Below are positions 10,759 through 30,300 of a stretch of DNA of 32,000 nucleotides, in pieces. Source of the stretch: Candidatus Anammoxibacter sp. (lineage in GTDB: Bacteria > Planctomycetota > Brocadiia > Brocadiales > Anammoxibacteraceae); the NCBI GenBank assembly GCA_021777055.1, contig JAIQZO010000012.1, positions 39,013-71,012 of the forward strand, written 5' to 3'. A model generated the notes under the pieces. The model worked only from the letters and a program-made list of their open reading frames with translations, did no database searches and had not been told where the DNA came from. The position numbers and the translations under genes are program-made. Every line of letters begins with the position of its first letter. The stretch's first letter is position 1.

Positions 10759-11100
10759 ACTTTCACCCCTTTCTTTACCGCATAATCGTTAAGAATGGCG
10801 GAGAATCTCTTTGTAGATTATGAGATTTCTACTTTAACCAGTTAATAATCTATTTGTGAAAAAAAATAAAAGGTTAGGAAAACAGAACAGCAAGGTACCA
10901 ACCAATGTTCTTGGAAAAAAAGATTGAAACAAGCAGGCTTAAACCAGCTCATATTTTAGAGGAAACTCTTCAGGTCGGAGAAAAATCATCTGCAAAGATC
11001 AAATTCATCATTACAGAAATGTATAGAGAAATTCTATGATACAAAAGTATTTGCTAGCAATCACAGAGCATAGAACCTTTTATAGTCTCTATTAGTTAAG

Positions 11101-11132
11101 GGAAGGGAAAGTACAGAGATACTTTCCCTTCC
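11101..11132 (-). terminator. Strong hairpin 36 nt downstream of the last cluster gene (probable operon terminator)
   Basis: Perfect 13-bp stem GGAAGGGAAAGTA / TACTTTCCCTTCC with a 6-nt loop. The trailing sequence on the minus strand is only moderately U-rich. Confidence 0.5.
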
Positions 11133-11168: not shown

Positions 11169-12650
11169 TTAATAAACAGTTGCAACACCTGCTAAATCTT
11201 TATTTACCGTAACGGAGTTACTCTTATACCAGTCCTGATAATAGTCACCAGAATCGTAAAGCTCTTTAAGGTGATCTAATACCTGTTCAAACACTTGTTT
11301 CCAGTCACACCCAACCTTGTATGCAAACATAGCGTTTCGCGGATTATGGTTCCTCTTTATCGTATTTCTGAACCTTGTACGAAGCATATCGCCATCATAA
11401 ACCATCTTATAGACCAACTGCATACCTTCAATGAACTCCTCCAAAGTCATATCAACAAATCTATGACAAACATTTGCAGTATCATAATATTTCCAGTCCA
11501 TAGGGAAATTTTTCCTAAATATTCTCCCTTCCGAATCAACGCGTTTAAAGAGTGGTGTGGTTGGAAACGGAGTGTTAATACCATAAGTCAGGATGTCTAT
11601 ATTGTTATCCAGAACAAAATTTGCCATTCGTTCAAATGAATCTTTAGTATCACCGTCCGCACCAAAAACCATTGAACCCCAAACAACTAGTCCGGCCTGA
11701 TGAATCTTATCCACTGACTCATAATAGCTGTCAACGCCCATCTTAAGGTTAACCCTTTTGTTCATCTTTTTAAGAACGTCTTCATTTGTGGATTCTATAC
11801 CTATCAGCATACCAAAATTTCCACTCTTAGCCATATAATCCAAGGTGTCTGCATCCTGGGAGATATTTAATGCTGTAAACCCGAGCCAATCCTTGTTCAG
11901 CTTTCTTTCAACCATTCCCTTAAACAGGCGGTTAGCTCTCTCATTTGATCTTTTTCCGTGTCCATAGAAATTGTCTTCTGCAAGCATCAGTCCCTTGTAA
12001 TCTGTAGCTTCCATCTCATCAAGCACATCTTCTACCGGTCTTTCCCTGAACTTCCCCCCCTGAAAAGTAGGAACGCTGCAGAAATCACATTTATTGGGAC
12101 ATCCCTTAGTTGTGATGATAGATGAAAATTTATAATCATACTTTTTTCGCAATAAGTCCCTGTCCGGATACACGTTTTTTAACAAACTCAAGTCAGGTAA
12201 GCCACCTTCATATAATTTCTTCAGATTGCCCTCTTCAAAGTCCTTAATAACTGTAGGCCAAATAGCTTCAGCTTCACCTGTAACAACACAATCAACATAT
12301 TCCATAGCCTCTTCTGTTACAACCGATGCATGTAAACCTCCCATTATAGTCGTCATACCCTTCTTTTTACAGGCAGCGGCTATTTTGTATGCACGTGCGG
12401 ACTGAAATGTCAGTGCAGTTAAACAGACGAGATCAAAGCCATCGAAGATAACATCGGTCTCCTCTTCATTCATTGCAAGCTCAATGTTTTCATCAATAAT
12501 ATCAAATTCCCATTCCCCTGGTGTAAGGGACGCAAGGTAAGCTAACCCCAATGGCATTTGCACAATTACAGTAATACTCTCTTCCCCATGTCTCCCTGGC
12601 GGATGGGGGCTGATCAGCATCATTTTTTTCTTCATATAATGTACCTCCAT
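11169..12650 (-). CDS. B12-binding-domain radical SAM enzyme (class B)
   Basis: N-terminal cobalamin-domain-like region (DLVCLTALTFQSARAYKIA..TIMGGLHASV..VVTGEAEAIW), then ITTKGCPNKCDFCSVP (CxxxCxxC). The likely true start is the ATG at 12635 (MKKKMMLIS), because GGAGG sits 8 nt upstream of it. Confidence 0.85.
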   Translation of the reverse strand: MEVHYMKKKMMLISPHPPGRHGEESITVIVQMPLGLAYLASLTPGEWEFDIIDENIELAMNEEETDVIFDGFDLVCLTALTFQSARAYKIAAACKKKGMTTIMGGLHASVVTEEAMEYVDCVVTGEAEAIWPTVIKDFEEGNLKKLYEGGLPDLSLLKNVYPDRDLLRKKYDYKFSSIITTKGCPNKCDFCSVPTFQGGKFRERPVEDVLDEMEATDYKGLMLAEDNFYGHGKRSNERANRLFKGMVERKLNKDWLGFTALNISQDADTLDYMAKSGNFGMLIGIESTNEDVLKKMNKRVNLKMGVDSYYESVDKIHQAGLVVWGSMVFGADGDTKDSFERMANFVLDNNIDILTYGINTPFPTTPLFKRVDSEGRIFRKNFPMDWKYYDTANVCHRFVDMTLEEFIEGMQLVYKMVYDGDMLRTRFRNTIKRNHNPRNAMFAYKVGCDWKQVFEQVLDHLKELYDSGDYYQDWYKSNSVTVNKDLAGVATVY

Positions 12651-12822
12651 AAAAAACAGTTAACTGTTATTAATTAGAATTTTTAACAATTTATTACAAT
12701 GGGATTTGTTATATATAATAAATGTCCCCAATACGTCTAAAGATAAGAGTTACAACCATAGTAAAACACAGCAAACCATTTCCCCAAGAATAGGACTTTT
12801 CTAGTATATGGATTCCACTGGT

Positions 12823-14277
12823 CTAATTAGTAATGTTATCTTTTAAAATTATATTTGCCGCTTTCCAGCCAGAAGATACTACGGAACTTATCCCAGGACC
12901 AGGAGTTGTCCAATGTCCTGCAAGATAAAGCCCTTTTAGCGGAGTAATATGTGACAGCCTGTTGCTAGCTATTTGATCATTTGTAACCGCCCAACCGTAA
13001 GCAGCACCTTTAGAATTCAATGTGTATCGTTTCAATGTTTTCGGTGTTGCAGCTTCTATAACTTCAATTTGATTCCTCAATCCAGGCACAAATCGAGTAA
13101 GATAATCTATAGTAGACTCAGTATAATCATCCTTCAGCTCTTCCCAATTCACTGTTTCATCATAAGCTTTTTTTAATGAAACAAGTGTAAAGATTATCTG
13201 TTTGTTTTCAGGGGCAAGTGATTTATCTACTGCTGTTGGTACTGAAATGTATTTCCAATTATCATGAGTATAAGGTCCATCAGTCTGGTAATAAAAACCC
13301 CTCTTTAAACCACTAAGATTTAAGTCCGCACTTACACCTAGATATAAAAGGTAAAATGATATACTCTCCTTCATTTTGCCAATTTTTTCAATGAAACTAT
13401 TATCAATACCGGAGCTAATTAACGTTGTAAAAGTCTGTTTTGCGTCAACATTAGAGACTATAACATCTGCTTTTATCTCTTTTTCTCCAGCCAAAGCGAC
13501 CCCTATTACCTTACTATCATCCGTTAAAATCTTTTCAACCTTTGCAGATAAGACTAGATGACCTCCCAGCTCAGTATACCGCTCCACGATAGCATTCGTA
13601 AATTCCTGTGTACCTCCGACCGGAAAATAAGCCCCGTCTTTTAGATAATTAATCAGCATCTGGCACATGCCAATAGTTGATACTTCACCCGGTAGCGAAC
13701 CTATATAACCCCATTGCCCGGCAAGGATAGTCTTTAATTTTGGATTTGAGAAAAAGCAGTCAAGCGTTTCAAGATATGTGAGGTCCTTATATTTATTTAT
13801 TAACGGGCTATCCGCCTTATTATTAATTATGGACCGATAGAGTTTAGTAAGTTCCTTGAAAAAGCCATCAAGGCACTCTTTCTCATCAGGGAACATTAAC
13901 TGCAAATTTTCTTTATATTTGTCAATATCTGCCGGAATCTCCACACTAAAAGAAGGAAAGATTAAATTATCCATCGGATCTAAATGGTGGAAATCTATTT
14001 CAAGCCCAAGCTCATTAACACATCTACCAACAATACTCCATTTCCCACATCCACCAATATGGTGGACAGCAGAATCAAAAATAAAGCCTTTGCGTTTAAA
14101 AGAAGTACAATAACCTCCAGGAATATAATGCTGTTCCGCAATCAAAACCTTTTTACCTGATTTTGCAAGAAAGGTTCCACATATCAGCCCTGCAATACCA
14201 GCACCAACTATAATCACATCATATTTACCATTTAATTGTGATCTGCCAGAAAAGTTTTTTGCATCAAATTTAGCCAT
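12823..14277 (-). CDS. Phytoene desaturase (CrtI/CrtD)-family FAD-dependent oxidoreductase
   Basis: 484 aa. N-terminal dinucleotide fold YDVIIVGAGIAGLICGTFLAKSGKKVLIAEQ..PGG and a C-terminal family signature GLYLAGHWTTPGPGISSVVSSG. Confidence 0.8.
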   Translation of the reverse strand: MAKFDAKNFSGRSQLNGKYDVIIVGAGIAGLICGTFLAKSGKKVLIAEQHYIPGGYCTSFKRKGFIFDSAVHHIGGCGKWSIVGRCVNELGLEIDFHHLDPMDNLIFPSFSVEIPADIDKYKENLQLMFPDEKECLDGFFKELTKLYRSIINNKADSPLINKYKDLTYLETLDCFFSNPKLKTILAGQWGYIGSLPGEVSTIGMCQMLINYLKDGAYFPVGGTQEFTNAIVERYTELGGHLVLSAKVEKILTDDSKVIGVALAGEKEIKADVIVSNVDAKQTFTTLISSGIDNSFIEKIGKMKESISFYLLYLGVSADLNLSGLKRGFYYQTDGPYTHDNWKYISVPTAVDKSLAPENKQIIFTLVSLKKAYDETVNWEELKDDYTESTIDYLTRFVPGLRNQIEVIEAATPKTLKRYTLNSKGAAYGWAVTNDQIASNRLSHITPLKGLYLAGHWTTPGPGISSVVSSGWKAANIILKDNITN

Positions 14278-14310
14278 CTTACTGTTTACAAAATTGGGGT
14301 GTCAATTTGA

Positions 14311-15540
14311 TCATTTAGACAAGATCAACGATGAAACATTACCAGTATCTGAGAAAGAGTTAATCAAAACATTTTTTACATCAATCTTCCTACTGTTATT
14401 AGACACGTAATCAAGGTCACATCCATTATCTTGTTCTTCGTAATTAATAGTTGGAGGGATAATGTTATTATTCAAAGCCATAACACCTGAAACAATTTGC
14501 ATTGCGCCTGAAGCATCAAGGCACTCTCCAACCATGGATTTGATTGAACTTATAGGTACGTCTTTTGCAATATCACCAAAGACCTCTTTAATGACCATTG
14601 TCTCCCTTTCATCACCAGTTATACTTGAGTTTGCACATGCAGAAATATAAGATATGTCTTTTGCTGTCAATGATGCGGTCTTTAAAGCCAGCTCCACGGA
14701 CCTTTTACTGTTTTGCGCACATTCAACACTATTTTTACACTTATCAGGGTTAAACGCGGTCCCGTAACCTTTGATCTCCGCAAGGATATTTGCCCCTCTG
14801 CTTTTTGCAGACTCCATATCTTCCAATACCATAACTGCTGCACATTCTCCAAGAATAAAACCGTTACGCCTTTTATCAAAAGGTGCTGATATCTCTAAAC
14901 TTCCGTCTTTACTCCCAGAAAGCAAACCAGAAGCAGAAGCACCAAGATAGATACCATAAGTCAACCCAAAAACGCCACCGGCTAATACCGCCTTTATCCT
15001 TTCCATTTTCAGAAAGTCAGCCGCGTATACAACAGCATCTATACCACTGGTAACACCGGTGGAAACTGTTGTGTTCAATCCGGTTGCATTACAAAATATA
15101 GATGCCCGGCTAGCGGGAGCATTTAAAACCGTATTGGGAAATGCCATTGGGTTAACATAACTCGGTCCTTCTTTAAGCGCATCCAGATCAAATTCACTTA
15201 TACTGTCTATACTTCCATATGTTGACCCGATTACAATTCCTAAATCATCACCACTATACGTATCTTCTTTAATATTAGAGTCCACCATTGCAAGCTTGGT
15301 AGCAGATGATGTCAAAAGAGAGGTTCTGTCTATGTGACGTATACCTTTTTTACCAAGGTACTCTTTTGCATCAAAATCTGAAATCTCGCCAGCTAACTTA
15401 CTCTTAAACAAAGATACATCAAAAAGTGTCACGGGTTTTATACCGGAAACACCATTTATTAAGTTATTCCAAAATGATTCTTTATCCGAACCAATAGATG
15501 AAATTATACCAATACCAGTTATAACTATCTGTTTTTCCAT
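14311..15540 (-). CDS. Ketosynthase-like protein lacking the catalytic triad (CLF/KS-beta-like partner)
   Basis: 409 aa with a thiolase-fold KS pattern. The three catalytic positions read Val (VSTGVTSGID), Cys (YISACANSS) and Glu (SMVGECLDASG). The start lies 1 nt after the stop of the upstream KS. Confidence 0.85.
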   Translation of the reverse strand: MEKQIVITGIGIISSIGSDKESFWNNLINGVSGIKPVTLFDVSLFKSKLAGEISDFDAKEYLGKKGIRHIDRTSLLTSSATKLAMVDSNIKEDTYSGDDLGIVIGSTYGSIDSISEFDLDALKEGPSYVNPMAFPNTVLNAPASRASIFCNATGLNTTVSTGVTSGIDAVVYAADFLKMERIKAVLAGGVFGLTYGIYLGASASGLLSGSKDGSLEISAPFDKRRNGFILGECAAVMVLEDMESAKSRGANILAEIKGYGTAFNPDKCKNSVECAQNSKRSVELALKTASLTAKDISYISACANSSITGDERETMVIKEVFGDIAKDVPISSIKSMVGECLDASGAMQIVSGVMALNNNIIPPTINYEEQDNGCDLDYVSNNSRKIDVKNVLINSFSDTGNVSSLILSK

Positions 15541-15541
15541 T

Positions 15542-16771
15542 TTACCCTACAAATTTTTTCAACACTAAACAACTATTATTACCACCAAACGCATACGCAT
15601 TGTTCATGGCAATGTTTACTTTAGTTTCTCTCTTTTCATTCGGAACAACATCCAAATCACACTCAGGGTCTTTTTCAAAGAAATTAATTGTGGGAGGCAC
15701 AATATCATTCTTGACTACCAATGCACACGTTATAGTCTCTATAGCGCTGGCAGCTCCCATTGTATGCCCGATCATTGATTTAATAGAACTAATCATTATG
15801 TTTTTAGAATGATCTCCAAAAACTTTCTTTACCGAGACAGTTTCCGCTTTATCATTGGCTACGGTTCCTGTCCCATGTGCGCTAACATACTGAACATCAG
15901 AAGGTTTAATCTTTGAATTTTCCAGTGCTTTATTCATTGCAGAAATGACGCCTACACCATCAGGATGAGGTATGGTAATATGATATCCATCACAGCTCAA
16001 ACCATATCCTATAATCTCTGCATATATGGTGGCGTTCCTCTTTAATGCACTTTCAAGGGATTCCAAAACAACCACACCTGCCCCCTCACCAATCAGCATA
16101 CCTTTACGATTTTTTTCAAACGGCTGACAGATTTCCGGCGCAATAGCATTAAGCCTGCCAAATCCCACATAAGCTACCCTGGAAAACGGATCTGCCCCGC
16201 CAGCAAACATATAGTCCGCTCTCCCCAAAGATATTAAATCACAAGCATACCCGATAGCATAATTACCGGCCGCGCATGCAGTAGGTACCATTGTATTTGG
16301 ACCTTTAAATCCAAATTCAATTGCAATGTTTGAAGGCATACTATTACATGGATGTTTTAAGAAAAGATCAGGACTAACCGATCCGTCACCGTTATTAAAT
16401 CTGATATCATCTATTGCCTCCAAAACCTGTATTTCTCCTGCCGTAGTGCCTATTGAAACACCAACCTTCTCTAGATCAATTGAGCTTAAATCAAGGCCTG
16501 AATCATCAAGCGCCAGTTTGGCTGCCGCAACTGCAAATTCGGAACCTTTACCCATATCCCGACAAGTACCATTTGCGAAATAATCTTTTATCTGGAAATT
16601 ATTTACTTCACAACCCCTATGGACCTTAAACTGTGAAGTATCAAAGCCCTTTACAGTATCAACTCCAGATTTCCCCGAAGTTACAGCATCCCAAAAGACA
16701 TCTGTTCCGCAACCAATTGGAGATATCACCCCCATGCCGGTGATTACTACTCTCTTAGCCTTATATGCCAT
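15542..16771 (-). CDS. fabF: Beta-ketoacyl-ACP synthase II-type condensing enzyme (catalytically intact)
   Basis: 409 aa. Has the active-site Cys in [13 protein letters not shown], His in [16 protein letters not shown] and His in [14 protein letters not shown]. Confidence 0.9.
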
Positions 16772-16788
16772 AAAACTTACATCGCCTT

Positions 16789-16817
16789 AATAAATAAACA
16801 AACCCCGATTAACGGGG
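16789..16817 (-). terminator. Short GC hairpin plus U-tract between fabZ and KS (attenuator/partial terminator candidate)
   Basis: The minus strand reads CCCCG-TTAAT-CGGGG followed by TTTGTTTATTTATT. Only 17 nt remain before the KS start codon. Confidence 0.4.
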
Positions 16818-16854
16818 CAAATTAACATCGTTTAAATTTTTAAATTTCAATAAG

Positions 16855-17301
16855 TTAACCTAAATCACTTTTTTCCGCAACACCAAAAGTCAAAGATGCT
16901 TTTGCCACTACTTTCCCGTCAACCTTAGCCACACCCTGGACAATCGCCCCCTTTGATACAATTTTATCAACATTAATCTCCAAAAACAGCTGATCACCTG
17001 GCACAACTGGCTTTGAAAAGCGTGCATTGGATACAGAGACCAGTAAGAACACCTTCCCATCACTATCCGTATCAGAAGAACCTTTTTTAAATAATACAAT
17101 AGATGCCTGAGCCAGTGCCTCAAGAATTAAAACCCCTGGCATTATGGCAAAATCAGGAAAATGACCAACAAAGTACGGCTCATTTGCTGAAACATTCTTT
17201 ATACAAACGACCCTTTTCTTTTCCTCGAATTCTACAATTTTATCTATTAAGATAAAAGGGTTTCTCTGAGGAAGCAGCTCTTTAAGCTCTTCAAAACTCA
17301 C
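16855..17301 (-). CDS. fabZ: 3-hydroxyacyl-ACP dehydratase
   Basis: 148 aa with a GTG start preceded by AGAGGTG. Hot-dog fold signature EPYFVGHFPDFAIMPGVLILEALAQ, with the catalytic His and Glu present. Confidence 0.9.
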   Translation of the reverse strand: MSFEELKELLPQRNPFILIDKIVEFEEKKRVVCIKNVSANEPYFVGHFPDFAIMPGVLILEALAQASIVLFKKGSSDTDSDGKVFLLVSVSNARFSKPVVPGDQLFLEINVDKIVSKGAIVQGVAKVDGKVVAKASLTFGVAEKSDLG

Positions 17302-17491
17302 AATGCACCTCTTTGTAAATCTTTATACACAACAAAACTGTTATGATATTTTCATTTTGATCGCAAATGACACTGATTATATTTTGATTACGCAGATTTT
17401 ATTCAATGCGTCCAGTATCTATTCATATAAATCTGAGTAATCAAGTATAAAAGAAACTCCCTATACATAAATATAATCTGCTCAGAGGACA

Positions 17492-17755
17492 TTAAGAACC
17501 CTGAGCTAATACCTCTTTCGTCATCTTTATGGTCTGCGCAAGAGAAGTTATATCTACCAATTTCTCTTCAGGAATTTGAATTTTGAATTTTTTTTCTATT
17601 AACGCTAAAATCTCCAAAGCAAGTAAAGAGTCTATTTCTAAATCTTTAAAGAAATCAGCTTCCTTTTTCTCCCAAATTTCGCTCTCTTCCATCTCGGTTA
17701 CCTCTGCAACAATTGCGGTAACATCTCTCTCTGTATCATCTGAATACAACTGCAA
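17492..17755 (-). CDS. Stand-alone acyl carrier protein
   Basis: 85-87 aa, acidic. Phosphopantetheine attachment motif DLEIDSLLALEIL. The listed TTG start abuts a G6 run, so the in-frame TTG at 17749 (7 nt after GGAAGGGGGG) is the more plausible start. Confidence 0.85.
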   Translation of the reverse strand: MQLYSDDTERDVTAIVAEVTEMEESEIWEKKEADFFKDLEIDSLLALEILALIEKKFKIQIPEEKLVDITSLAQTIKMTKEVLAQGS

Positions 17756-18149
17756 ACCCCCCTTCCAAGTATATATGTGTAAAACAAGAACTAAACATAT
17801 AAATTATTTAATATATACATTTATACTATAAAAAAACATACTATAAATTCTAAATCTATTACCTTAACTCTTTTTTGCCTATACTGAAATTATCTAAAAA
17901 ACAACAAAACGGACTAGCAATACTTTGACAGTTCGTATTAATTCCTTACAGTGAAACAAAAAAACGGCTTGACTACATAATCGCAAACATTTACAACTAT
18001 CAACCGTTTATTTCCACAGCAATAAATTCAATCGGATAATGATATCAGGGCATAAATCGATTGTCAATAATAATATCACTGGCATTATTGTATAGAAGCT
18101 GCAACATCTTAAAAAATGAATACCAAGAATATAAATTTGCAAACATTTC

Positions 18150-19154
18150 TCATTTATACTTGGTACCTATTATCATACCAGAGCCAGAAGAGAGATTGAT
18201 TCGCTGCAAATTCTCAAAGCCAACCTGCTGCAGCCATTTTGTTATTTCACTAGCACTATAATTTCTACCACCATGAGTTGCCGTTAGCATGTTCAAGCTA
18301 AACAAAACCGCAAACTCAGGCGCCGTCATGGAATTATCCAACAAAAAATCATGAACGACTACCCTTCCATTGTCCTTCAATGCCGCTAAACATTTTTTTG
18401 CAATCTTGATATTGATTTTTTCATCGTACATGTGCATAAGGTTTGACACAAATACCACATCATACAACCCCTTTCCATAACTGCCACCCAAACATTCACC
18501 GTTTATAGTACTGATACGCTTTTCCAGTTTAGCCTCATTTATATACTCCATGGTAATTTCAGTTACACCTTCAAGATCAAAAACCACAGCATTAAGTCCG
18601 GGATTTAATTTCACAAATTCAATTGCAAAGGAACCAGGTCCACCTCCGAGATCTAATAGCAGTTTACATCCTGACAGATCAAGACTCTTTGCAACCTCTT
18701 TGCTTTTCAGGACAGCAAAGTCTCTCATTGCTGATATAAAAACCCGTCGTCTCGCAGGGTCAACCTCCTCGCCCACATTATCAAATGATACTGGGCCTCC
18801 CGTTTTCACGGCTCGGTTAAGTTTCCCCCAATTATCCCACAAATTACCGAAAAGGAGGATTCTGTTACCCTGGTACATAGGCCTACCCTTTACAAGAAAC
18901 CTATCTGCAATCTGCCTATTTTTAAACATATCCCCTTTTTTTGACAGAAAGCCCAACCCGGCCAAAGCATTTAACAACATCTCCGTAGCTCTCTTCTCAG
19001 CCTTAATTTGACTGGCAAGTGATACTATTGATTTTTCTGATCTATATAGCTTGGTGAAGATCTCAAACTCAACCGCGACAATCAATACCTGGGATTTCCA
19101 ATATCCGGCAGAGAGGTCTGAAATATAATCAAATTGAGATTTAATTGTTTTCAT
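18150..19154 (-). CDS. Class I SAM-dependent methyltransferase (O-methyltransferase family 2-like, with N-terminal dimerisation domain)
   Basis: 334 aa. SAM motif I LLDLGGGPGSFAIEF, an acidic post-I residue (VVFDLE) and motif VFVSNLMHMY. The N-terminal ~100 aa are helical and dimerisation-like. Confidence 0.85.
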   Translation of the reverse strand: MKTIKSQFDYISDLSAGYWKSQVLIVAVEFEIFTKLYRSEKSIVSLASQIKAEKRATEMLLNALAGLGFLSKKGDMFKNRQIADRFLVKGRPMYQGNRILLFGNLWDNWGKLNRAVKTGGPVSFDNVGEEVDPARRRVFISAMRDFAVLKSKEVAKSLDLSGCKLLLDLGGGPGSFAIEFVKLNPGLNAVVFDLEGVTEITMEYINEAKLEKRISTINGECLGGSYGKGLYDVVFVSNLMHMYDEKINIKIAKKCLAALKDNGRVVVHDFLLDNSMTAPEFAVLFSLNMLTATHGGRNYSASEITKWLQQVGFENLQRINLSSGSGMIIGTKYK

Positions 19155-19222
19155 TGAAATTTATTTTGTAGAAAAGCAACCAAAACAAAAATTAAGATGG
19201 GCCAAACAACATCAACACAAAG

Positions 19223-20800
19223 TTAACACACTGCAAGCTCTTTTAGTTTAGCCGTATGTTCTTTTTTCAGATCCACAATTGCCTGTTTGTTCATATTAAG
19301 TGCGCCTTTTTCAAAAGAGAGAAGCGTTTGGTCAAACATATTAATAATCGTTGTATTTAAGACAGAAAGGAAACTATTTTCATGCATATCAGTATCTTTA
19401 CAAAAACAATCTTCACTGTACATACCCTCTGATCTACTATAATTTGCAACTATTGAAAATACGTTATTACAAAGACTGGAAGTAATATCCACAAGCGATG
19501 ACATCCTTTTGTCCGTGTAATCAAATTGCTTCTCATATCCGTCAGGATCACAAGGTTTAAAATGCCCATTATCTCCACTATAATCCGGAGTTCCCAGAAA
19601 GATTGATTGTTTATGGCACAAAAGATGCGCGGTTGTATAAGGATCTTTCATTAACCCCATCTCTTTTAAGAATGTAAAGTTTTTCCTTATACCGTTTATT
19701 TCCGTATCCTTACCAAACATTATAAAACCCACATTCGGTTCTATTCCACAATCTCTAACGATACTAATCGCGTTCTTATTAATCTCTACCGTTGTCTTCT
19801 TTTTAAATCCGTCAAGGGTGGTTTGATCACCACTTTCGACCCCCAAAAAGAGATTTCTCAGACCAGCTTTAATCAACAAAGAGATAACATCCTTTTCAAT
19901 ATCGTTAGCACGGCTTTCAAGACCAATACTGATGTTTAATCCATCATCTATAATTAGATTGGCAAGATCCCTCGCCCTTGCCTTACCAGAAACAGCATTG
20001 CCAAAAAAACTTGCATCCGCAAAATAGAAATTATCACAACCATGATCATTGTAAAGTTGTTTGATCTCATCAAAAACGTTTTTCGCACTTCGGCCACGCC
20101 ACGTTGCGTTGTCTCCATAGAATGGATTTAAATAACAAAACCCACAGTTATTGTAGCACCCCCTACTGGCAAGGATATATGTTACAATACCTTTTTGATT
20201 TGCAATCACCATGTCCCTACGATCTGGAAACGGCAATGCATCCAAGTCAGATATTTGGTCTCGCGGCACCAACGAATTTGGTATATCTCGGCTTACAAGG
20301 CCGTCAATTCCAGAGAGTTCCACGTTACCGTCAGTACCCACTATTCGTGATGACAACTCAAGGAATGTATATTCAGGTTCACCAACAACGACAGAATCTA
20401 TGAATGGAAAACGTTTCAAAATACTTTTATATGCAAAGGTGGAATAGTGTCCATACAAGCTTATATGCGCAGTTATACCTGCATTGCAAAGCCTTTCCAG
20501 CAAAGCAAATATCTCTTCCGTCTTTTCCCACAAATACACAAGGCGTATTCCAATTACCTTGTAAGATGCACCCATTAACATTTCAAATGTATCATTAATA
20601 GACAACCTCTTTAGATTTGCATCTATTATATCTGTTTTTAAGTCGTTTTTTTCCAGTAAAGCAGCCATATAACCTGTCATTAAACATGCGGACAATGGCG
20701 CATTTACAACATCTTCCGCTCGCTTGGGATTGTCCGGTCTAGGATGTTCAATGAGCGCAATTTGCGCTTTGCTTTGTCTGTAAATACCATTTTCTTTCAT
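19223..20800 (-). CDS. B12-binding-domain radical SAM enzyme (class B)
   Basis: 525 aa. N-terminal cobalamin-domain-like region (..VIGIRLVYLWEK..HISLYGHYSTF..VVVGEPEYTF), then ILASRGCYNNCGFCYLN (CxxxCxxC). Confidence 0.85.
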   Translation of the reverse strand: MKENGIYRQSKAQIALIEHPRPDNPKRAEDVVNAPLSACLMTGYMAALLEKNDLKTDIIDANLKRLSINDTFEMLMGASYKVIGIRLVYLWEKTEEIFALLERLCNAGITAHISLYGHYSTFAYKSILKRFPFIDSVVVGEPEYTFLELSSRIVGTDGNVELSGIDGLVSRDIPNSLVPRDQISDLDALPFPDRRDMVIANQKGIVTYILASRGCYNNCGFCYLNPFYGDNATWRGRSAKNVFDEIKQLYNDHGCDNFYFADASFFGNAVSGKARARDLANLIIDDGLNISIGLESRANDIEKDVISLLIKAGLRNLFLGVESGDQTTLDGFKKKTTVEINKNAISIVRDCGIEPNVGFIMFGKDTEINGIRKNFTFLKEMGLMKDPYTTAHLLCHKQSIFLGTPDYSGDNGHFKPCDPDGYEKQFDYTDKRMSSLVDITSSLCNNVFSIVANYSRSEGMYSEDCFCKDTDMHENSFLSVLNTTIINMFDQTLLSFEKGALNMNKQAIVDLKKEHTAKLKELAVC

Positions 20801-20857: not shown

Positions 20858-21033
20858 CATAGCGCGGCGAAGCCGCAATCAAAATACGAGATGCCAGATA
20901 CTGGATACTGGCAAATAGTTCAATTTCTATCTTTCTTGTCAAGATGCAACATAACTAGAATAGCTTACCAGGAATACATGCAAAACTCTTTCTAGAAAAA
21001 ACAAGCTTTTACAGTGTAATACTATACTATAAA
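20858..21033. repeat. Modular intergenic repeat, copy B
   Basis: CATAGCGCGGCGAAGCCGCAATCAAAATACGAGATGCCAGATACTGGATACTGGCAAATAGTT..GTCAAGATGCAACAT..CTTTCTAGAAAAAACAAGCTTTTACAGTGTAATACTATACTATAAAG. Near-identical blocks are shared with copy C. Confidence 0.7.
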
Positions 21034-21087: not shown

Positions 21088-22422
21088 TTATTCTGCAGTC
21101 GCCGCAGCGTAATCCCTCTTCTTGCTGTTTGCAAGATCCTCTTCGTAGTATTTGCTAACAGTTTTCAACGAACAGAACTTTCCACACATTGTGCAAGTAT
21201 CGGTCTCCATCGGCGGCCGGTCACCCCTAATCTCCTTTGCTCTTTCCGCAGTTATAGCAGTTTCGTACTGAGTCTTCCAGTCTAAATCCCTTCTTGCTAT
21301 ACCCATCTTCAGGTCCATATCCCTGGCCTTATCCTTTAGTTTTACCATGTCGCCAACATGCGCAGCAACCTTTGCAGCCATAACACCCTCTCTTACATCA
21401 TCCGGTTTCGGCAGTGCCAGGTGTTCCGGCGGTGTAACATAACAAATAAAATCAGCTCCATGGCTTGAAGATATCGCCGCCCCTATAGCAGATGAAATAT
21501 GATCATACCCAGGCGCAACATCAGTGGTAATAGGTCCAAGCATATAAAAAGGAGCATTATTGCTTAACCGTTTCTGGATTATAACGTTTGCTTCAATCTC
21601 ATCAATAGGTATGTGTCCTGGCCCTTCAACGATAATCTGCACTCCCTTTTTCTGTGCATACTCTGCTATTTCAGAATTCATTATCAGTTCTTGAATTTGA
21701 GCCCTGTCAGTGCTGTCATGTATTGCTCCAGCTCGCAAACCATTACCAAGGCTAAGAATAACATCGTGCTTCTTCATAATATCAATAAGTCTGTCTATTT
21801 GATCATAAAGAGGATTCTCTTTTTTATTATGATTCATCCAAGCTGTAAGAAAAGAACCTCCGCGACTAACAAGGCCTCCATACCGGTATCCCTGCCTCTT
21901 TAACCGCTCCAGAGTTGTAAGATTAATCCCGCAATGAATAGCCATAAAACCTATACCTTCTTCAGCCTGCTGTTCTATTACATCAAACAAGAAGTCGGCA
22001 TCCATGTGAACAACAGAACCTTTCTGATTTATTGTCTCAATTGCAGCTTGATAAAGTGGTACAGTTCCCACTGTCAGATTAATAGCATCAAGAACACGCG
22101 TCCTAATAGCTTTAAGATCTCCCCCGGTTGACAACTCCATAAGTGTATCAGCTCCGCTTTTTTCAGCAACCTTTGCTTTCTCTACTTCCATATCATGATC
22201 AATTATGTCAGGTGATGTACCTATACTGGCATTAACCTTTGTCTTTAATCCCTTTCCGATTCCAATTACAGTGGCTTTACGATTGGGATTTCCGTAAATT
22301 ACAATTGTCCCTTTTGCAATGCCGTCTCTTATGAATTCAGGGCATACGTCATCATAAACCGCAGCCTCTTTCATCGGTTCTGTTATTACTCCGTCTCGGG
22401 CCAATTCTAATTGCGTTTTCAT
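21088..22422 (-). CDS. thiC: Phosphomethylpyrimidine synthase (thiamine pyrimidine synthase)
   Basis: 444 aa. The ThiC core runs throughout (GTVPLYQA, HCGI, SRGGS, LGDGLRPG-like LGNGLRAG), and the C-terminal Fe-S motif is CTMCGKFCSLK. An AAGGAG Shine-Dalgarno lies 8 nt upstream. Confidence 0.95.
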   Translation of the reverse strand: MKTQLELARDGVITEPMKEAAVYDDVCPEFIRDGIAKGTIVIYGNPNRKATVIGIGKGLKTKVNASIGTSPDIIDHDMEVEKAKVAEKSGADTLMELSTGGDLKAIRTRVLDAINLTVGTVPLYQAAIETINQKGSVVHMDADFLFDVIEQQAEEGIGFMAIHCGINLTTLERLKRQGYRYGGLVSRGGSFLTAWMNHNKKENPLYDQIDRLIDIMKKHDVILSLGNGLRAGAIHDSTDRAQIQELIMNSEIAEYAQKKGVQIIVEGPGHIPIDEIEANVIIQKRLSNNAPFYMLGPITTDVAPGYDHISSAIGAAISSSHGADFICYVTPPEHLALPKPDDVREGVMAAKVAAHVGDMVKLKDKARDMDLKMGIARRDLDWKTQYETAITAERAKEIRGDRPPMETDTCTMCGKFCSLKTVSKYYEEDLANSKKRDYAAATAE

Positions 22423-22650
22423 GCCTTCTATCTCCTTTTTCAGTTATATTAAACTTGGTTGATTTTTTATTTTATACAAGAATTTTGTTTTCTATAATAC
22501 TCTCTACGAGGAAACAAATTAAAGATTTAGGAATTCAGATCTTAGTTATATTTAGGTGTTATGATTTTCCCGATACCGCAAGCTTAGCGCATGGGAAACA
22601 GCAGAACTTAATAACATTCAAATATAACCAGAAGATGGGCCACAAAATCT

Positions 22651-23493
22651 TTAATCTATGCCTTCGTTGAATATATACTTTGAACAGTTAATCGTAACAG
22701 TATCCCCCTTCTCAACATTTAGAAGCTCTTTGGCATTCGCTTTATTTACTGCGATCTCCAAATACCCTGCACTCCCAAACAACGCAACCAGCCCTCCTTC
22801 TTCTACCTCCGAATACGACTGGTTGATCTTTTTTATCCTGTGGTTTGCAACCGTAATTGATAAAGCACCGTACATTCCATCTATTTGAAAGCTTTTCAAT
22901 AAACCTCTATTTATGTTTGTAATAAGATTTCCAAACCGGTCTATGTATATTATTTGTGCAGTCGCTATCCCGTTTGTGGACAATACTGGAGCAGGCGTCT
23001 CTATTTTCTCTATTTCAAAGATTTCCGCACCTAGCTCATTAATATCTACACCATTCATCAAATGCCCCGCAACTGGAGCAAAAACATCTCTACCATGGAA
23101 AGTATTGCTCACCTCCGGCAAAAAATATTTATTATTTGTAACATTTATAATTGATAAAGATTTTTCGCCATCCGCAATCAAGCTCAAAACCCCGTTATCA
23201 GGGGCGAGAAAGGTGTATTTGTCAGTTTTTAAGCATACAATTCTGCGGGTGCTCCCCACACCTGGGTCCACCACAACAACATGCATGGTACCAGAAGGGA
23301 AAAAACTGTACGCAGAAAATAAAATGTATGCCGCACCAAAGATATCCTGAGGATTTATATTATGACAAAGGTCAACAATCCTTGCATTCTGGCACGTATT
23401 TAAAATCACCCCTTTCATAACTGCAACATATTCATCCTGCAAGCCAAAGTCCGTTGTCAATGTAACTAACGAGTTCTGTTTTGACATATCCAA
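22651..23493 (-). CDS. SAM hydroxide adenosyltransferase family protein (DUF62; fluorinase/chlorinase-related)
   Basis: 280 aa. Contains LVTLTTDFGLQDEYVAVMKGVI, VVVVDPGVGS, NTFHGRDVFAPVAGHL and DRFGNLITNI, which are characteristic of the DUF62 family. Confidence 0.8.
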   Translation of the reverse strand: MDMSKQNSLVTLTTDFGLQDEYVAVMKGVILNTCQNARIVDLCHNINPQDIFGAAYILFSAYSFFPSGTMHVVVVDPGVGSTRRIVCLKTDKYTFLAPDNGVLSLIADGEKSLSIINVTNNKYFLPEVSNTFHGRDVFAPVAGHLMNGVDINELGAEIFEIEKIETPAPVLSTNGIATAQIIYIDRFGNLITNINRGLLKSFQIDGMYGALSITVANHRIKKINQSYSEVEEGGLVALFGSAGYLEIAVNKANAKELLNVEKGDTVTINCSKYIFNEGID

Positions 23494-23567
23494 TCCTATA
23501 AGGACTAACCGTAAATCGGCATCATTTCTTTCCTCTTAATGGTAAGAGACAAAATCAGTTAAACTTT

Positions 23568-23790
23568 CATATGCATCAAAGCCGCTACCAAATCAGAAAT
23601 TAGAGAATGCAGAAGACAAAATTCAGAATAACTCATAGATTTGTAGTTATTTCACCATGTTATTAAGCACGGAATTGTGAGTATGTTACAACGCATACTT
23701 CCTTTATCATGACTCCTGTCTCCTGAATTCTCTGTTCCATAAAAACTACAAAATCTAAAAAGCAAGTTTTTATAAAATAATACTAAGAGG
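23568..23790. repeat. Modular intergenic repeat, copy D (long form)
   Basis: A degenerate left hairpin (CATATGCATCAAAGCCGCTACC), a CAGAAT-type tract, CATAGATTTGT as in copy A, then ACCATGTTATTAA..ACTCCTGTCTCCTGAATTCT..CCATAAAAAC-N20-GTTTTTATAAAATAATACTAAG as in copy E. Confidence 0.6.
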
Positions 23791-24050
23791 GAACAAATTG
23801 AATTTTTTACCCATTCATATTCAATTATTTGCGAATTACCATGCAATGGAATGAAAAGAGGTGTTAAAAGGGAGGTTATGCTTCGAACGATAACAAATTG
23901 AACTTCTAATGGTAAAGACCTCTGTTATAACTATTTATCATTAATGAAGTCTAACTTGTAACCGCGCGAAGCATAATATTAAGCTGAGAGCAAAAGCTGT
24001 ATTTCCTTTTTGCATAAGGCCCGGGCAAAACCGTTGACCGAGCCATTACA

Positions 24051-24443
24051 CTAATTGTCCTCATACGAAACGATCTCTTCTCCTTTATATGAATATTCTG
24101 CATTTGAACAAGCGCTTCCACAGAAATCACATCCGACACACTTCCTAGGATCGATTGTTCTAACATGTCCTGCTTCACGTGAAATTGCGCCGGTAGGACA
24201 CCAATCCCAACACGAAATCCCACAATTTGTGCAGTTATGGGTCAAAATTGTCATCTTCGGCCCTTCAATAACAAAAGCATCATAAGGACAATCACGAATA
24301 CACTCCAGGCAGTAAACGCATTTCTGTTTATTTATCTTAACTACGCTACCAGCTTCCCTTATTGCATCAAACTTGCATAACTTAGTAACACACAACATAC
24401 AACCAACACAGTTTTTATTAACTTTTATAGTTAAACCATCCAT
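24051..24443 (-). CDS. Poly-ferredoxin-like protein with four [4Fe-4S]-type Cys motifs
   Basis: 130 aa. Motifs are CVGCMLCVTKLC, CVYCLECIRDCP, CTNCGISCWDWCP and CVGCDFCGSAC. Confidence 0.8.
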   Translation of the reverse strand: MDGLTIKVNKNCVGCMLCVTKLCKFDAIREAGSVVKINKQKCVYCLECIRDCPYDAFVIEGPKMTILTHNCTNCGISCWDWCPTGAISREAGHVRTIDPRKCVGCDFCGSACSNAEYSYKGEEIVSYEDN

Positions 24444-24581
24444 AACTTTCCGTCCTCCATCGTCTCTTGAAAAAGTTATAATTAACCATTGACAAACTTA
24501 ATGCTTTATATTAATTTAACTCGGCAGACATTTCAAGTAATTTTTAAATAGATATTATCTTATTTATAAGGAGACAAATTA

Positions 24582-25196
24582 ATGCAGAAGGCTCTAAAGG
24601 TTTCATTATGTGCATGCATAGTAGCACTTTACGCTATTAGTTTCAACAGTTTACAAGCAGGAGAAAGCAGTATGAATAAAGGGCTTTATGCCATATTAAA
24701 AACTAATCAAGGAGACATACTTTGTGAATTATACGCAAATGAATCCCCAATTACAGTAGAAAATTTCGTAGGTCTGGCATCCGGAGAAAAAGAGTATCTT
24801 GATCCAAAAACCGGAAATCGGCATAAAGGTAATTTTTATGACGGGCTTATATTTCACAGGGTTATTCCAAAATTTATGATTCAAGGTGGATGTCCCACTG
24901 GAACAGGTATGGGAGGTCCAGGCTACAAGTTTGAAGATGAATTCTCTCCAAACCTTAAATTCGACAAACCAGGTCTTCTTGCAATGGCAAACAGCGGCCC
25001 TGATACTAATGGAAGCCAGTTTTTCATCACAACCACCCCCACTCCATGGCTAAACGGCAGGCACACTATCTTTGGCGCCGTTATAGAGGGTATGGATGTT
25101 GTGAAAAAGATTGAGAATGTTAAGAGAAATTCTCAGGACAAACCCATTGAAGCCGTCGTTATTGAAACCATAGAGATAAAGAAAGCGGGGGAATAG
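24582..25196 (+). CDS. Cyclophilin-type peptidyl-prolyl cis-trans isomerase with N-terminal signal peptide
   Basis: 204 aa. Hydrophobic leader [26 protein letters not shown]. Also [25 protein letters not shown] and [16 protein letters not shown]. Confidence 0.93.
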
Positions 25197-27370: not shown

Positions 27371-30300
27371 CTATTCTACAGTTATAAATCTTTTCCCAAT
27401 TTTTGCTATGTCATCAATCAAAGAATAAAACGTTGGCAGGATTATCAATGTCAATAAAGTAGAAGCAGTTAACCCACTAACAATCACAAGGCCCAGGGGA
27501 GCCCACAGCCGTTCCCGGCCTTCAAGTTTACCAAAGAATTGCGGAAGCAGTAATGGCAGCACCATTGGCATAAGCCCGAGTATAGTGGTTATAGACGTCA
27601 TAAGGATTGGTCTAACCCTATCCTTTAACCCTTTCAATATTGCATCATCCCTTTCCATCCCGTTGCTTCTCTGTTTATTGATGTAATCTATCAGCACAAT
27701 GGCATTATTAACAACAATCCCCACCAAGAGGATCATGCCAATCTGAGCAAAATCGTTTAGAGGAATATCCATGAAATGGAACATAAACGTAACACCTGTA
27801 AACGCAAACGGTATGGACAGCATAATGGTAAATGGATATACAAATGACTCAAACAAAGATGCCATTATCAGATATATAATTATGATCGCCAGTATTAATC
27901 CAAAGTTTAACTCCTTCTCCTCTTTTCCGTAATGTCTGTACTGGCCTCCCATCTCCCATTTATAGTCAGGTGGGAAATTTAGCTGGCTCATAACTGACTG
28001 TATATTACCTTTCAGAGCCATATACCCTATACCTTTATAGTTAATACTTAACGTAACTGTCGGTTTACGATCCAGCCTTTCTATGGATTTTGGCCCTTTT
28101 GTTTGATTAAACATCGCAACCCTATTCACTGTAACAAGGCTATCATCCACACCTTTAAGAGTTAAATTCTTTATTTTCTCCAGAGTATCTCTATCCTCCT
28201 CCTTTGCCTGAAGAGTTATATCTACATCATAATCATCAGTTTTCAATGTAGTTACAGCTCGTGAGCTAAGAGCTCCACTAAGCCCCATTGCAACTCTGCG
28301 GGGAGACAATCCGTACATTTGTGCTTTGTTTCGTTCTATATTTACATGAAGTTCATATGTTCCGCTTTGGAGGTTAGTCTCCACTTCTTTGATATAAGGC
28401 TTCCTCTCCAGCATTGTTTTTGCCCTTTCTGCTAGTCGGGAAAGGACATCGATATTCTTCCCATAAAAATCTACAGTAACATTATTCGCCGATGGGCCGA
28501 ACCCGTATCTCCTCGCACCTACGTACTTGACACCAGGAAGAACTGGGAAAAGTTTTTTTAACCTCTCCCGGACCTCACCTATGGAAAGAGTCGCGGCCTC
28601 CTTTGTCTTAAGATATGCCTCAATCACCCCGCCATCTTTCTCAAAATTGGTTGAAAACGCTATGATATCAAGTTCTGACTTGTTACGATCGATCAAACCC
28701 TCTAATTTTGCAAAAAGTGCAGTAGTTTCATCAATGTCGTAATCTACCGGAGTATCAACCCAAATCTTCGTCTCCCTATAAGGAGTACTCCATACTATCT
28801 CTTTATCAAGATTTAGGAATAAATGTACTGACCCTCCAACAATTCCTATTGCTACTCCAGTTGTAATCCATTTATGTTTTATGGTTATACGGGCAAGGCA
28901 TAGATATGATCTTATAAGCCGGTTTTCTCTAGTTTTCCCCTGAACCTGTTTACCCAAACGCCCCAAATCTTTCTTTCGATTTTTTTTTAGCAAGAGGGAC
29001 GATGCATACGGAACCATTGATAAAGAGACAAGTAATGAAGTTGTAACAATTAAACATAAAGTTACACCAAAATCGTGAAGGAATATTCCCATTCTGTTCT
29101 TTGAAAGAAAAACAAGCGGTATAAAGACTGCAACCGTTGTTGCAGTTGCCGCTGTAATTGCAAGTCCAACCTCACTGGTTGCGGCAACAGCCGCATCCTT
29201 AACCTCCAGGCCTTTCTGGGTTTTGTGTCTAAAAATATTCTCAAGTACCACTATCGCCGGATCAACTAAAATACCTATTGCAAGCATAATCCCAGAAAGC
29301 GAAACAACGTTAATTGTTATATCCGCATTAAACAGACGTCTTAACATAAACATCATGCAAAAGGTAAAGAGTATTGACACGGGGATCGCGCACACCACAA
29401 TAACTGTGCTTTTGATATTCCTCAAAAAAATAAACAACACAATAATAACCAATAAACCACCAACTAGGCCCGTATCTTTTAACTTGGATAAACTTTTGAT
29501 AACTGGTTCAGCTCTGTCTCTATATATATTAATTTCCAATCCTCTCAACCTGGGGTCTGATTGGAGTTCGGTTAATGCCTTTTTAACATCTTTTACTACA
29601 GCAATAGTATTTGCATTGGAAGATTTTACAACGCTAAGAGTTACCGCCTCCTTACCATGAAGCCTTCTTACATTTGTCTTTTCAGGAAAAGAGTAATGAA
29701 TGTCTGCTAAATCCTTAAATCGTAATAGCTGTGGTGGTTGGTTTTCTGTTTCTACAGAAAGCTGTTCACTATCTCCCATATCAAACTTTGAGATTGCAAC
29801 AGGTAATTCATCTATATCTTTAACTGTCTTAAAGTTTCCAATTGTTCGAATTGCATATTTAATATCACCATCAATTATGTTTCCGGCAGAAGTACTGGTA
29901 TTACTGGTAACCAGTAAATCCCTTAAGAAACGCGCATCAACACCATGAGAAGTCAACCTTTCCTTATCAAGATTAATAAAAAGCTGTTTTTCTTCAATAC
30001 CTTTAGTATCAACAGAAGCTACCCCGTTAATCCTTTGCAGCCGTCTTTTTATTACCTTTTCAATAACATAATACAGCTTCTCAGATTGGATATTACCTCC
30101 CACCTGTAGCTCGATCACTGGGATGTCTCCAGATCTAAACCTCCCAATTCTTATCCTTTCAACATCATCTGGCAACGATGCCCTGATTTCATTTATTCGA
30201 TTCATCACCTGCATTGCACCAATATGCATATTCGCACCAACCTTAAATCTAAGGCTAACGCTTGCATTGTTAGCGCTAGAGGTCGAGCTAACAGAATCAA

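Follow-up and report, generated by a model that had tools for sequence, protein, structure and literature searches.

The 32,000-nucleotide (32-kb) stretch of DNA analysed here (the window) carries on its minus strand a six-gene core, running from 17755 to 11169, whose genes are, as judged from their sequences, clear orthologues in the same order of the anammox gene set known as Cluster I, kuste3603-3608 of Kuenenia stuttgartiensis. The locus is very probably the Cluster I orthologue of a lineage within the Brocadiales, and Cluster I is the consensus candidate cluster for ladderane fatty-acid synthesis. An initial annotation had described eight co-oriented minus-strand genes as one dedicated ladderane-type lipid cluster with unknown chemistry. 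All eight open reading frames (ORFs) were recovered at exactly the same coordinates, and the dedicated character of the locus is borne out by proteins that are far nearer to solved amx-specific structures than to canonical ones and by synteny in anammox genomes. The conserved unit is nevertheless six genes and not eight: the two genes upstream of the core, which encode a cobalamin (B12)-dependent radical S-adenosylmethionine (SAM) enzyme (rSAM_A) and a SAM methyltransferase (MT), are not members of the published Cluster I and appear as a separately promoted, clade-specific neighbour. Published accounts used for the comparison were Rattray 2009, Javidpour 2016, Dietl 2023 and the Granatino 2026 preprint.

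Gene order and protein similarity carry this assignment. In transcription order the core encodes a dedicated acyl carrier protein (ACP; amxACP, 17492..17755), a 3-hydroxyacyl-ACP dehydratase variant (amxFabZ, 16855..17301), an active ketosynthase (KS) subunit (amxFabF2, 15542..16771), a triad-less, chain-length-factor (CLF)-like partner (amxFabFmut or KSmut, 14311..15540, starting 1 nt past the stop of the amxFabF2 gene), a CrtI/phytoene-desaturase-like FAD enzyme (PDH, 12823..14277) and a second cobalamin-dependent radical SAM enzyme (rSAM_B, 11169..12635), the respective orthologues of kuste3603 to kuste3608. This co-oriented arrangement is the one by which Cluster I is recognised, and the synteny comparison across anammox genomes that the initial annotation had proposed recovered it in Brocadia, Scalindua, Brocadiaceae B188 and four relatives (loci L017, L018, L021 and L022), at protein identities of 57-90%. 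Crystal structures are known for orthologues of four core proteins (amxACP, amxFabZ and the amxFabF2/amxFabFmut pair), and the window proteins match them far better than anything else: the ACP scores 115-119 bits against the solved amxACPs (7qv0_D, 7auf, 9s5i_E) and at most 36 bits against canonical ACPs, FabZ 214 bits against 8ayd and 200 bits against 7qv0 compared with 127 bits for the best canonical FabZ, the KS 661 bits against 9s5h_B with the next PDB match at 343 bits, and its partner 575 bits against 9s5h_C with the next at 260 bits. Among the 120 closest homologues listed for KSmut, all named matches are anammox, led by Scalindua at 69% and Brocadiaceae at 67% identity. Kuenenia, S. 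brodae and B. fulgida have no protein identical to one from the window, and the lineage is about equidistant from Scalindua, Brocadia and Kuenenia. Exact copies of the proteins turned up solely in one NCBI record and in Logan run SRR15505515, and a GTDB scan based on exact peptide words picked up Brocadia as its one anammox genus.

Residue-level features agree with the overall similarity. The domain assignments of the initial annotation were all backed by Pfam (E-values of 1e-13 to 1e-45 for the eight proteins), with the refinement that MT is more precisely an O-methyltransferase-family-2 protein than a generic class I enzyme. The ACP is a PP-binding protein that retains the DSL serine, and FabZ has the FabA/FabZ hotdog domain together with the published amxFabZ hallmarks, namely Ile replacing the tunnel Gly at position 69, Ser or Thr at 96 and Val or Ile at 115; in the window these read AQAS-I-VLF, Ser96 (ARFSKP) and Val115. 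The residue following the tunnel Ile is Val in the window and Ile in Kuenenia, which otherwise shares the six genes, their order and orientation, the FabZ hallmarks and the type of triad loss. As initially annotated, an intact KS (Cys166/His299/His336) stands beside a triad-less partner, which has Val/Cys/Glu at the three triad positions; these substitutions lie within the range published for FabFmut proteins, in which Cys becomes Val or Thr and the His residues become Asn, Glu or Cys. Below their cut-offs, NCBIfam models of the cispentacin pathway also matched, with FabZ scoring 100 bits against AmcE (cut-off 140) and KS and KSmut scoring 227 and 152 bits against AmcF (cut-off 325). The cispentacin pathway uses a type-II-polyketide-synthase (PKS)-like machinery in which KS/CLF-like and hotdog enzymes build a carbocycle.

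An active KS directly followed by a triad-less paralogue is also the layout of type II PKS KS/CLF pairs such as actinorhodin ActA/ActB and ishigamide Iga11/Iga12, and the orthologous pair in 9s5h/9s5i is a heterodimer that decarboxylates malonyl-ACP, an activity that would extend to the window pair by orthology. The window CLF differs in having Val and not Gln at the catalytic-Cys position, and its partner, FabZ, is of fatty-acid-synthase type, with cyclases, aromatases and a ketoreductase (KR) absent from the window. Gln at this position is typical of aromatic PKS CLFs. This KS/CLF architecture, the ApeI-like and ApeP-like Pfam hits precomputed on FabZ, and antiSMASH-type 'ladderane' calls, which are already known to be common in non-anammox phyla, are what could be cited for a generic aryl-polyene or type II PKS secondary-metabolite cluster, or for a housekeeping fab operon, but we consider any of these highly improbable. 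An aryl-polyene cluster, which would have paired ApeI/ApeP dehydratases, two ACPs and accessory genes such as an acyltransferase, was rejected because there is one hotdog dehydratase and one ACP and the accessory genes are missing, the window being free of thioesterase, adenylation/ammonia-lyase, LolA-like and APE-type export genes as well as of the KR, cyclase and aromatase genes. An AcrB-type transporter at 27371-30529 lies more than 6 kb from the cluster, beyond unrelated genes. A housekeeping fab operon was likewise rejected on gene content, as the initial annotation had argued: domain and family scans found no fabD, fabG, fabH, fabI or acc gene in the whole 32 kb, and where a fab operon would have fabH, fabD, fabG, acpP and fabF together and a homodimeric FabF, the KS here stands with a triad-less partner. 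The anammox-only named matches of KSmut and the preference of the core proteins for amx-specific over canonical structures speak against all of these alternatives.

The two remaining core enzymes are tied to Cluster I by synteny. PDH carries the Pfam domains Amino_oxidase and NAD_binding_8 and a GxGxxG motif, scores 170 bits against crtI_fam, under its cut-off of 238, and has syntenic orthologues at 57-72% identity. rSAM_B combines a Pfam B12-binding domain (36 bits, cut-off 32) with a Radical_SAM domain and a CxxxCxxC motif, and its syntenic orthologues are 70-88% identical. Its ORF is open to position 12650, but translation probably starts at the ATG at 12635, because a GGAGG precedes it and the resulting 488 aa fits the 486-488 aa of full-length orthologues (n = 5, L017-L021). 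The best NCBIfam match of rSAM_B is HpnJ, at 92 bits against a cut-off of 578, and neither radical SAM enzyme approaches the 360-bit cut-off of TIGR04072 (rSAM_ladder_B12), with 82 bits for rSAM_B and 61 bits for rSAM_A. Both enzymes resemble OxsB, BchE, HpnJ and TsrM/TokK/CysS in having an N-terminal Rossmann B12 domain and a CxxxCxxC TIM-barrel core, and both fit class B of the radical SAM enzymes in predicted cofactor use; they differ in that their identity to these proteins is only 14-21% and all curated models remain far under cut-off. OxsB, BchE and HpnJ are ring-forming or ring-contracting enzymes, not methylases. The placement of rSAM_A near BchE/OxsB and of rSAM_B near HpnJ is therefore suggestive of ring chemistry, though merely a lead at such identities, and functional transfer from any of these enzymes is unjustified; the substrate of the radical SAM enzymes is presumably an acyl-ACP.

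Comparison of loci set the limits of the conserved unit. The complete eight-gene order is present in the window/L010 and in L017 and L018, where rSAM_A is merely 51% identical and the outer flanks differ from those of the window, and L015 is collinear with the window at 81-86% nucleotide identity until it is broken inside the KS gene by integrase and transposase genes. It is solely in these four loci, the window's clade, that rSAM_A and MT adjoin the core, and relative to kuste3603-3608 this direct upstream addition of a B12-radical SAM gene and an O-methyltransferase-family gene is a layout limited to that clade. In Brocadia a SAM hydrolase is followed by rSAM_A standing alone, in the Anammoxibacter locus thiC is followed by rSAM_A, and Scalindua, B188 and L022 show the core alone. 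Among relatives with complete genomes, the one nearest to the window (a 5.1-Mb genome; L014, L021) has peptidyl-prolyl isomerase (PPIase), Fer4, SAM-hydrolase, thiC, rSAM_A and MT genes as in the window, with the pair and Cluster I 3.7 Mb apart. Fusion of the rSAM_A-MT pair to the core is thus real and recurrent, yet clade-specific and dispensable. rSAM_A has a conserved neighbourhood of its own, consisting of thiC and/or an (R)-SAM hydrolase-like SAM_HAT protein together with ferredoxin and PPIase genes (window 21088-25196, L014 3560-11647, L012 8894-11542, L016 4408-7465), and this SAM-related neighbourhood is kept across lineages without fusion to Cluster I. In L015 (14794-17547; ENA ERZ26222911 ctg922466), collinearity ends within the KS gene and is followed by phage-integrase and Tn5-type transposase fragments; the contig comes from a 2x-coverage long-read assembly with frameshifts, and the break could be a genuine disruption or an assembly artefact. 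L015 and L022 derive from one sample, and the idea that they are two copies in one genome was rejected for want of any nucleotide-level match; they are treated as separate organisms.

rSAM_A (19223..20800, 525 aa) has a Radical_SAM domain (1.3e-15), a CxxxCxxC motif and a B12-binding match of 18 bits, which is below the cut-off of 32. An AlphaFold (AF2) model built from 25 orthologues (pLDDT 84) matches cobalamin-dependent radical SAM enzymes over its full length, best OxsB at a TM (template modelling) score of 0.74, followed in the PDB by CysS, AprD4, TsrM, TokK and MgmA, all of the class-B radical SAM type and mostly cobalamin-bound. Its best NCBIfam match is BchE, at 120 bits against a cut-off of 481. 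The radical SAM enzymes within the published 34-gene ladderane candidate set are kuste2803, 3342, 3343 and 3608, and rSAM_A appears to be none of these four, because it is only 21% identical to rSAM_B, the kuste3608 orthologue, is unlike the rSAM_B paralogue that accompanies a second KS pair in L021, and falls short of TIGR04072. Its orthologues in Brocadia, Scalindua, Anammoxibacter, Wunengus and Tripitaka are 43-58% identical; sharp restriction of the family to anammox bacteria was rejected, since scores fall gradually and relatives outside the group (Desulfotomaculum copahuensis and a Thermoleophilia metagenome-assembled genome, MAG) reach ~38-41%. MT (18150..19154, 334 aa) combines Methyltransf_2 (PF00891) with an N-terminal O-methyltransferase dimerisation domain (PF08100), and its best PDB matches, at ~100 bits, are a DsyB-like MTHB methyltransferase and RedM. 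Identity of MT with the crystallised AmxMT1 (8HD2) was rejected, as 8HD2 is missing from its PDB matches. MT orthologues span anammox lineages at 41-87% identity (41-66% in Brocadia, Brocadiaceae, Wunengus and Anammoxibacter), and the named non-anammox relative, Desulfopila, stands at ~38%. By their homologue distributions, both families spread across anammox lineages and neither is confined to them.

The intergenic sequence between MT and ACP suggests where the core begins as a transcription unit. This 394-nt gap contains the best promoter match of the region, a sigma-70-like element at 18039..18071 (minus strand) recognised by consensus matching and comparison of loci, which has the form TTGACA-17-TATCAT with an upstream TG (extended -10) and agrees with 11 of 12 consensus positions, its -10 element lying at 18039-18044. 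In the window it reads ATTATTGACA-N17-TG-n-TATCAT, and the extended motif shared across loci is, on the coding strand, ATTATTGACA-N17-(C)TG(A/C)TAnnAT. Nine of the ten amxACP loci annotated in the scan have a single copy, placed 102-316 nt upstream of amxACP (among them L001 at 7807, L002 at 7796, L015 at 12680, L017 at 12723, L018 at 12758, L020 at 5808 and L021 at 5814); the Scalindua locus L019 is the sole exception, and the motif is absent from the rest of the 751 kb of fetched sequence. Because the motif is kept whether or not rSAM_A and MT sit upstream, the core is suggested to be its own transcription unit, and we infer an autonomous six-gene unit whose promoter-like motif is conserved across Brocadiaceae and the window's clade. 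In the three fused loci whose gene calls are intact (the window, L017 and L018), MT and ACP lie 226-394 nt apart. With such a gap and a conserved promoter-like element dividing MT from ACP, the eight genes probably do not form one operon, and the most economical reading is of two units, rSAM_A-MT and an autonomous, strongly promoted six-gene core, which fits the high expression reported for Cluster I.

Three hairpins, all on the minus strand, may punctuate these units. A terminator-like hairpin with a T-run at 20863..20877, between thiC and rSAM_A, would mark the upstream limit of the rSAM_A-MT unit on the strength of a consensus match only. A second, GC-rich one at 16802..16818, between FabZ and KS and likewise found by consensus match only, may be an attenuator that raises ACP and FabZ relative to the downstream enzymes. 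The perfect 13-bp stem-loop at 11101..11132, which the initial annotation had taken to close the cluster, stands as a structure (6-nt loop, -24.3 kcal/mol, z = -6.9 against shuffles) 37 nt past the rSAM_B stop. A canonical intrinsic terminator was rejected for this element, which has no T-tract after it and received no call in the terminator scan; it probably serves as a 3' end or as a stabiliser.

Several observations weigh against reading the locus as ladderane machinery. Cluster I proteins have not been tied experimentally to a ladderane product, and expression of kuste3603-3608 in E. coli gave neither ladderanes nor new fatty acids. The chemistry of the radical SAM enzymes is not readable from homology, and no curated cut-off is reached by either of them, by MT or by PDH; their function is therefore not transferable by family membership. 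In Brocadia, Scalindua, B188, Anammoxibacter, the 5.1-Mb genome and L022 the core stands without rSAM_A and MT beside it, and the presence of thiC or a SAM hydrolase beside rSAM_A in five lineages may reflect a neighbourhood that is historical rather than functional. The window contains no hzs or hdh gene, and it is protein phylogeny alone that points to an anammox host. On that side, the close homologues listed for KSmut and for rSAM_A are, wherever named, from the Brocadiales or Planctomycetota, as are all named MT matches above ~41% identity, and the window KS nests within the anammox clade of a neighbour-joining (NJ) tree built without bootstrap support.

Cluster I is described in the literature as exclusive to anammox bacteria, and a sister cluster in Nitrospirota refines that statement. 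It is found at L004 9227-14566 (CAVTRN010000002.1, a Nitrospirota MAG with a 3.08-Mb contig) in the order short-chain dehydrogenase/reductase (SDR), triad-less KS (Phe/Cys/Glu), FabZ, KS, ACP and PDH, and at L003 3675-9041 (JBAZZX010000042.1, a Thermodesulfovibrionales MAG), where methyltransferases take the places of the SDR and PDH; a hybrid histidine kinase comes next in both. Like the window, both loci have an ACP and an intact KS (52-54% identity); their triad-less KS (47-50%) shares the window's His-to-Cys and His-to-Glu changes, their FabZ (48%) retains the tunnel Ile, and L004 alone adds a PDH (36%). In both halves of the NJ tree of KS proteins the Nitrospirota sequences branch as sisters of the Cluster I pair from anammox bacteria, nearer to it than the second anammox pair. 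The Nitrospirota cluster differs in gene order and in its FabG-like SDR and class I methyltransferases (one CMAS-like), lacks the promoter motif upstream of ACP and has no B12-radical SAM gene within 10 kb at either locus. Anammox exclusivity thus holds for the full six-gene unit with rSAM_B, and not for the KS/CLF, FabZ, ACP and PDH part, and the missing B12-radical SAM enzyme fits a role of that enzyme as the ladderane-specific step.

The same comparison bears on whether Cluster I might instead make some other anammox-specific or short-chain product on amxACP, such as a short polyene or unsaturated acyl chain, a methyl-branched fatty acid or just a C6-C8 linear stub, and not be ring-forming machinery at all. 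Organisms without known ladderanes share its KS/CLF pair, tunnel-Ile FabZ, ACP and PDH, both the KS/CLF pair and amxFabZ favour chains no longer than C8, enoyl reductase (ER) and KR genes are absent from the cluster, and heterologous expression yielded no ladderane. The window KS is moreover equally near to the polyene ketosynthase 6kxd_A and to FabF (343 against 340 bits); the PDB output names 6kxd_A only 'Ketosynthase', and we take it to be Iga11 of the ishigamide pathway. Such a product nonetheless seems quite unlikely, given that the Nitrospirota version is the one without a B12-radical SAM enzyme and that the six-gene unit including rSAM_B is reported to be universal in, and exclusive to, ladderane producers, besides being highly expressed.

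With a ladderane role for the core as the preferred reading, the question becomes what rSAM_A and MT contribute. That the rSAM_A-MT unit feeds the same pathway in the window's clade is a tentative proposal which we place well below an even chance of being right, and the stronger form, in which all eight genes are one pathway unit and the pair are integral ladderane enzymes lacking from the failed kuste3603-3608 expression, is rather unlikely. The eight-gene order persists in four loci despite rSAM_A identity down to 51% and differing outer flanks in L017 and L018, both families span anammox lineages, the six genes by themselves yielded no product in E. coli, and rSAM_A, which is unlike rSAM_B and its KS-pair-linked paralogue, appears to lie outside the four radical SAM enzymes of the 34-gene set. 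Set against this, most sampled lineages, the closest complete-genome relative among them, keep the pair apart from the core, and a promoter-like element and a long gap divide pair and core even where fused; in Brocadia, Anammoxibacter and L014 the synteny of rSAM_A is with thiC or a SAM hydrolase and not with lipid genes, and rSAM_A has non-anammox relatives at ~40% identity. Because the pair is fused in one clade, its families are anammox-wide and the Nitrospirota cluster has no B12-radical SAM enzyme, it is conceivable, but unlikely, that rSAM_A and MT supply what the ladderane pathway still lacks, with cyclobutane formation falling to the B12-radical SAM enzymes. If true, this would explain why kuste3603-3608 alone gave nothing in E. 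coli.

For the core itself, a working scheme can be outlined from its orthologues. The published amxFabF2 and amxFabFmut proteins form a KS/chain-length-factor-like heterodimer that decarboxylates malonyl-amxACP, prefers amxACP and favours C6-C8 chains, and this heterodimer work refuted the earlier idea (Rattray) that the triad-less subunit acts as a catalyst by itself; published amxFabZ dehydrates 3-hydroxyacyl chains up to C8 and does so solely on amxACP. By orthology, the window pair would prime synthesis by malonyl-amxACP decarboxylation, favouring short C6-C8 chains, and amxFabZ would dehydrate short (to C8) 3-hydroxyacyl chains on amxACP. Ketoreduction and any enoyl reduction would be borrowed from enzymes encoded elsewhere, the CrtI-like flavoenzyme might add or shift unsaturation by desaturating or isomerising the chain, and rSAM_B could abstract a hydrogen atom from an ACP-bound intermediate and so start C-C ring closure or coupling. 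The initial annotation had noted that no enzyme of such a cluster had been shown to form a cyclobutane, and this is still so: a review of August 2026 and a preprint of May 2026 both describe the ring-forming chemistry as unknown. It had also compared the content and order of the locus with Rattray 2009; the six genes are indeed kuste3603-3608, but that study emphasised the larger kuste3335-3352 cluster, and it was later work that singled out kuste3603-3608.

Ladderane biosynthesis is among the best-known unsolved problems in lipid biochemistry: concatenated cyclobutanes have no known enzyme that makes them, and anammox bacteria are not genetically manipulable. The core cluster is not new and is being actively studied by structural methods, and the window instance is a further copy with a clade-specific eight-gene layout. 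It does not solve ladderane synthesis, its core being already the field's prime suspect, and it yields leads and not answers. Two candidate genes beyond the tested 34-gene set directly adjoin the cluster in one clade; the Nitrospirota cluster without a B12-radical SAM enzyme offers a natural comparator whose product could reveal what the KS/CLF, FabZ, ACP and PDH part makes; and the conserved promoter-like motif suggests the six-gene core as a separate transcription unit.

Beside Cluster I at L021 (1700-5651; ENA ERZ25071401 contig_1), a second module is divergently oriented; its rSAM_B paralogue is 50% identical to rSAM_B and accompanies two KS proteins, one intact and the other triad-less (Phe/Asn/Glu). 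We infer this module to be of the kuste2803-2805 type. It resembles the core in placing an rSAM_B-type enzyme next to an intact and a triad-less KS, and differs in lacking ACP, FabZ and PDH; it has no counterpart in the window. The surroundings of the cluster show negative GC skew throughout and 33-44% GC, with no compositional break, and scans of the entire window returned no tRNA gene and no Rfam family. The upstream flank carries thiC, (R)-SAM hydrolase-like, ferredoxin, PPIase, CheB, Rce1-like protease and AcrB-type pump genes. The downstream flank carries glnA and gltB on the same strand as the cluster, and an untranslated stretch of 340 nt (10759-11100), itself included in the Rfam scan, separates the closing hairpin from the glnA start at 10758.

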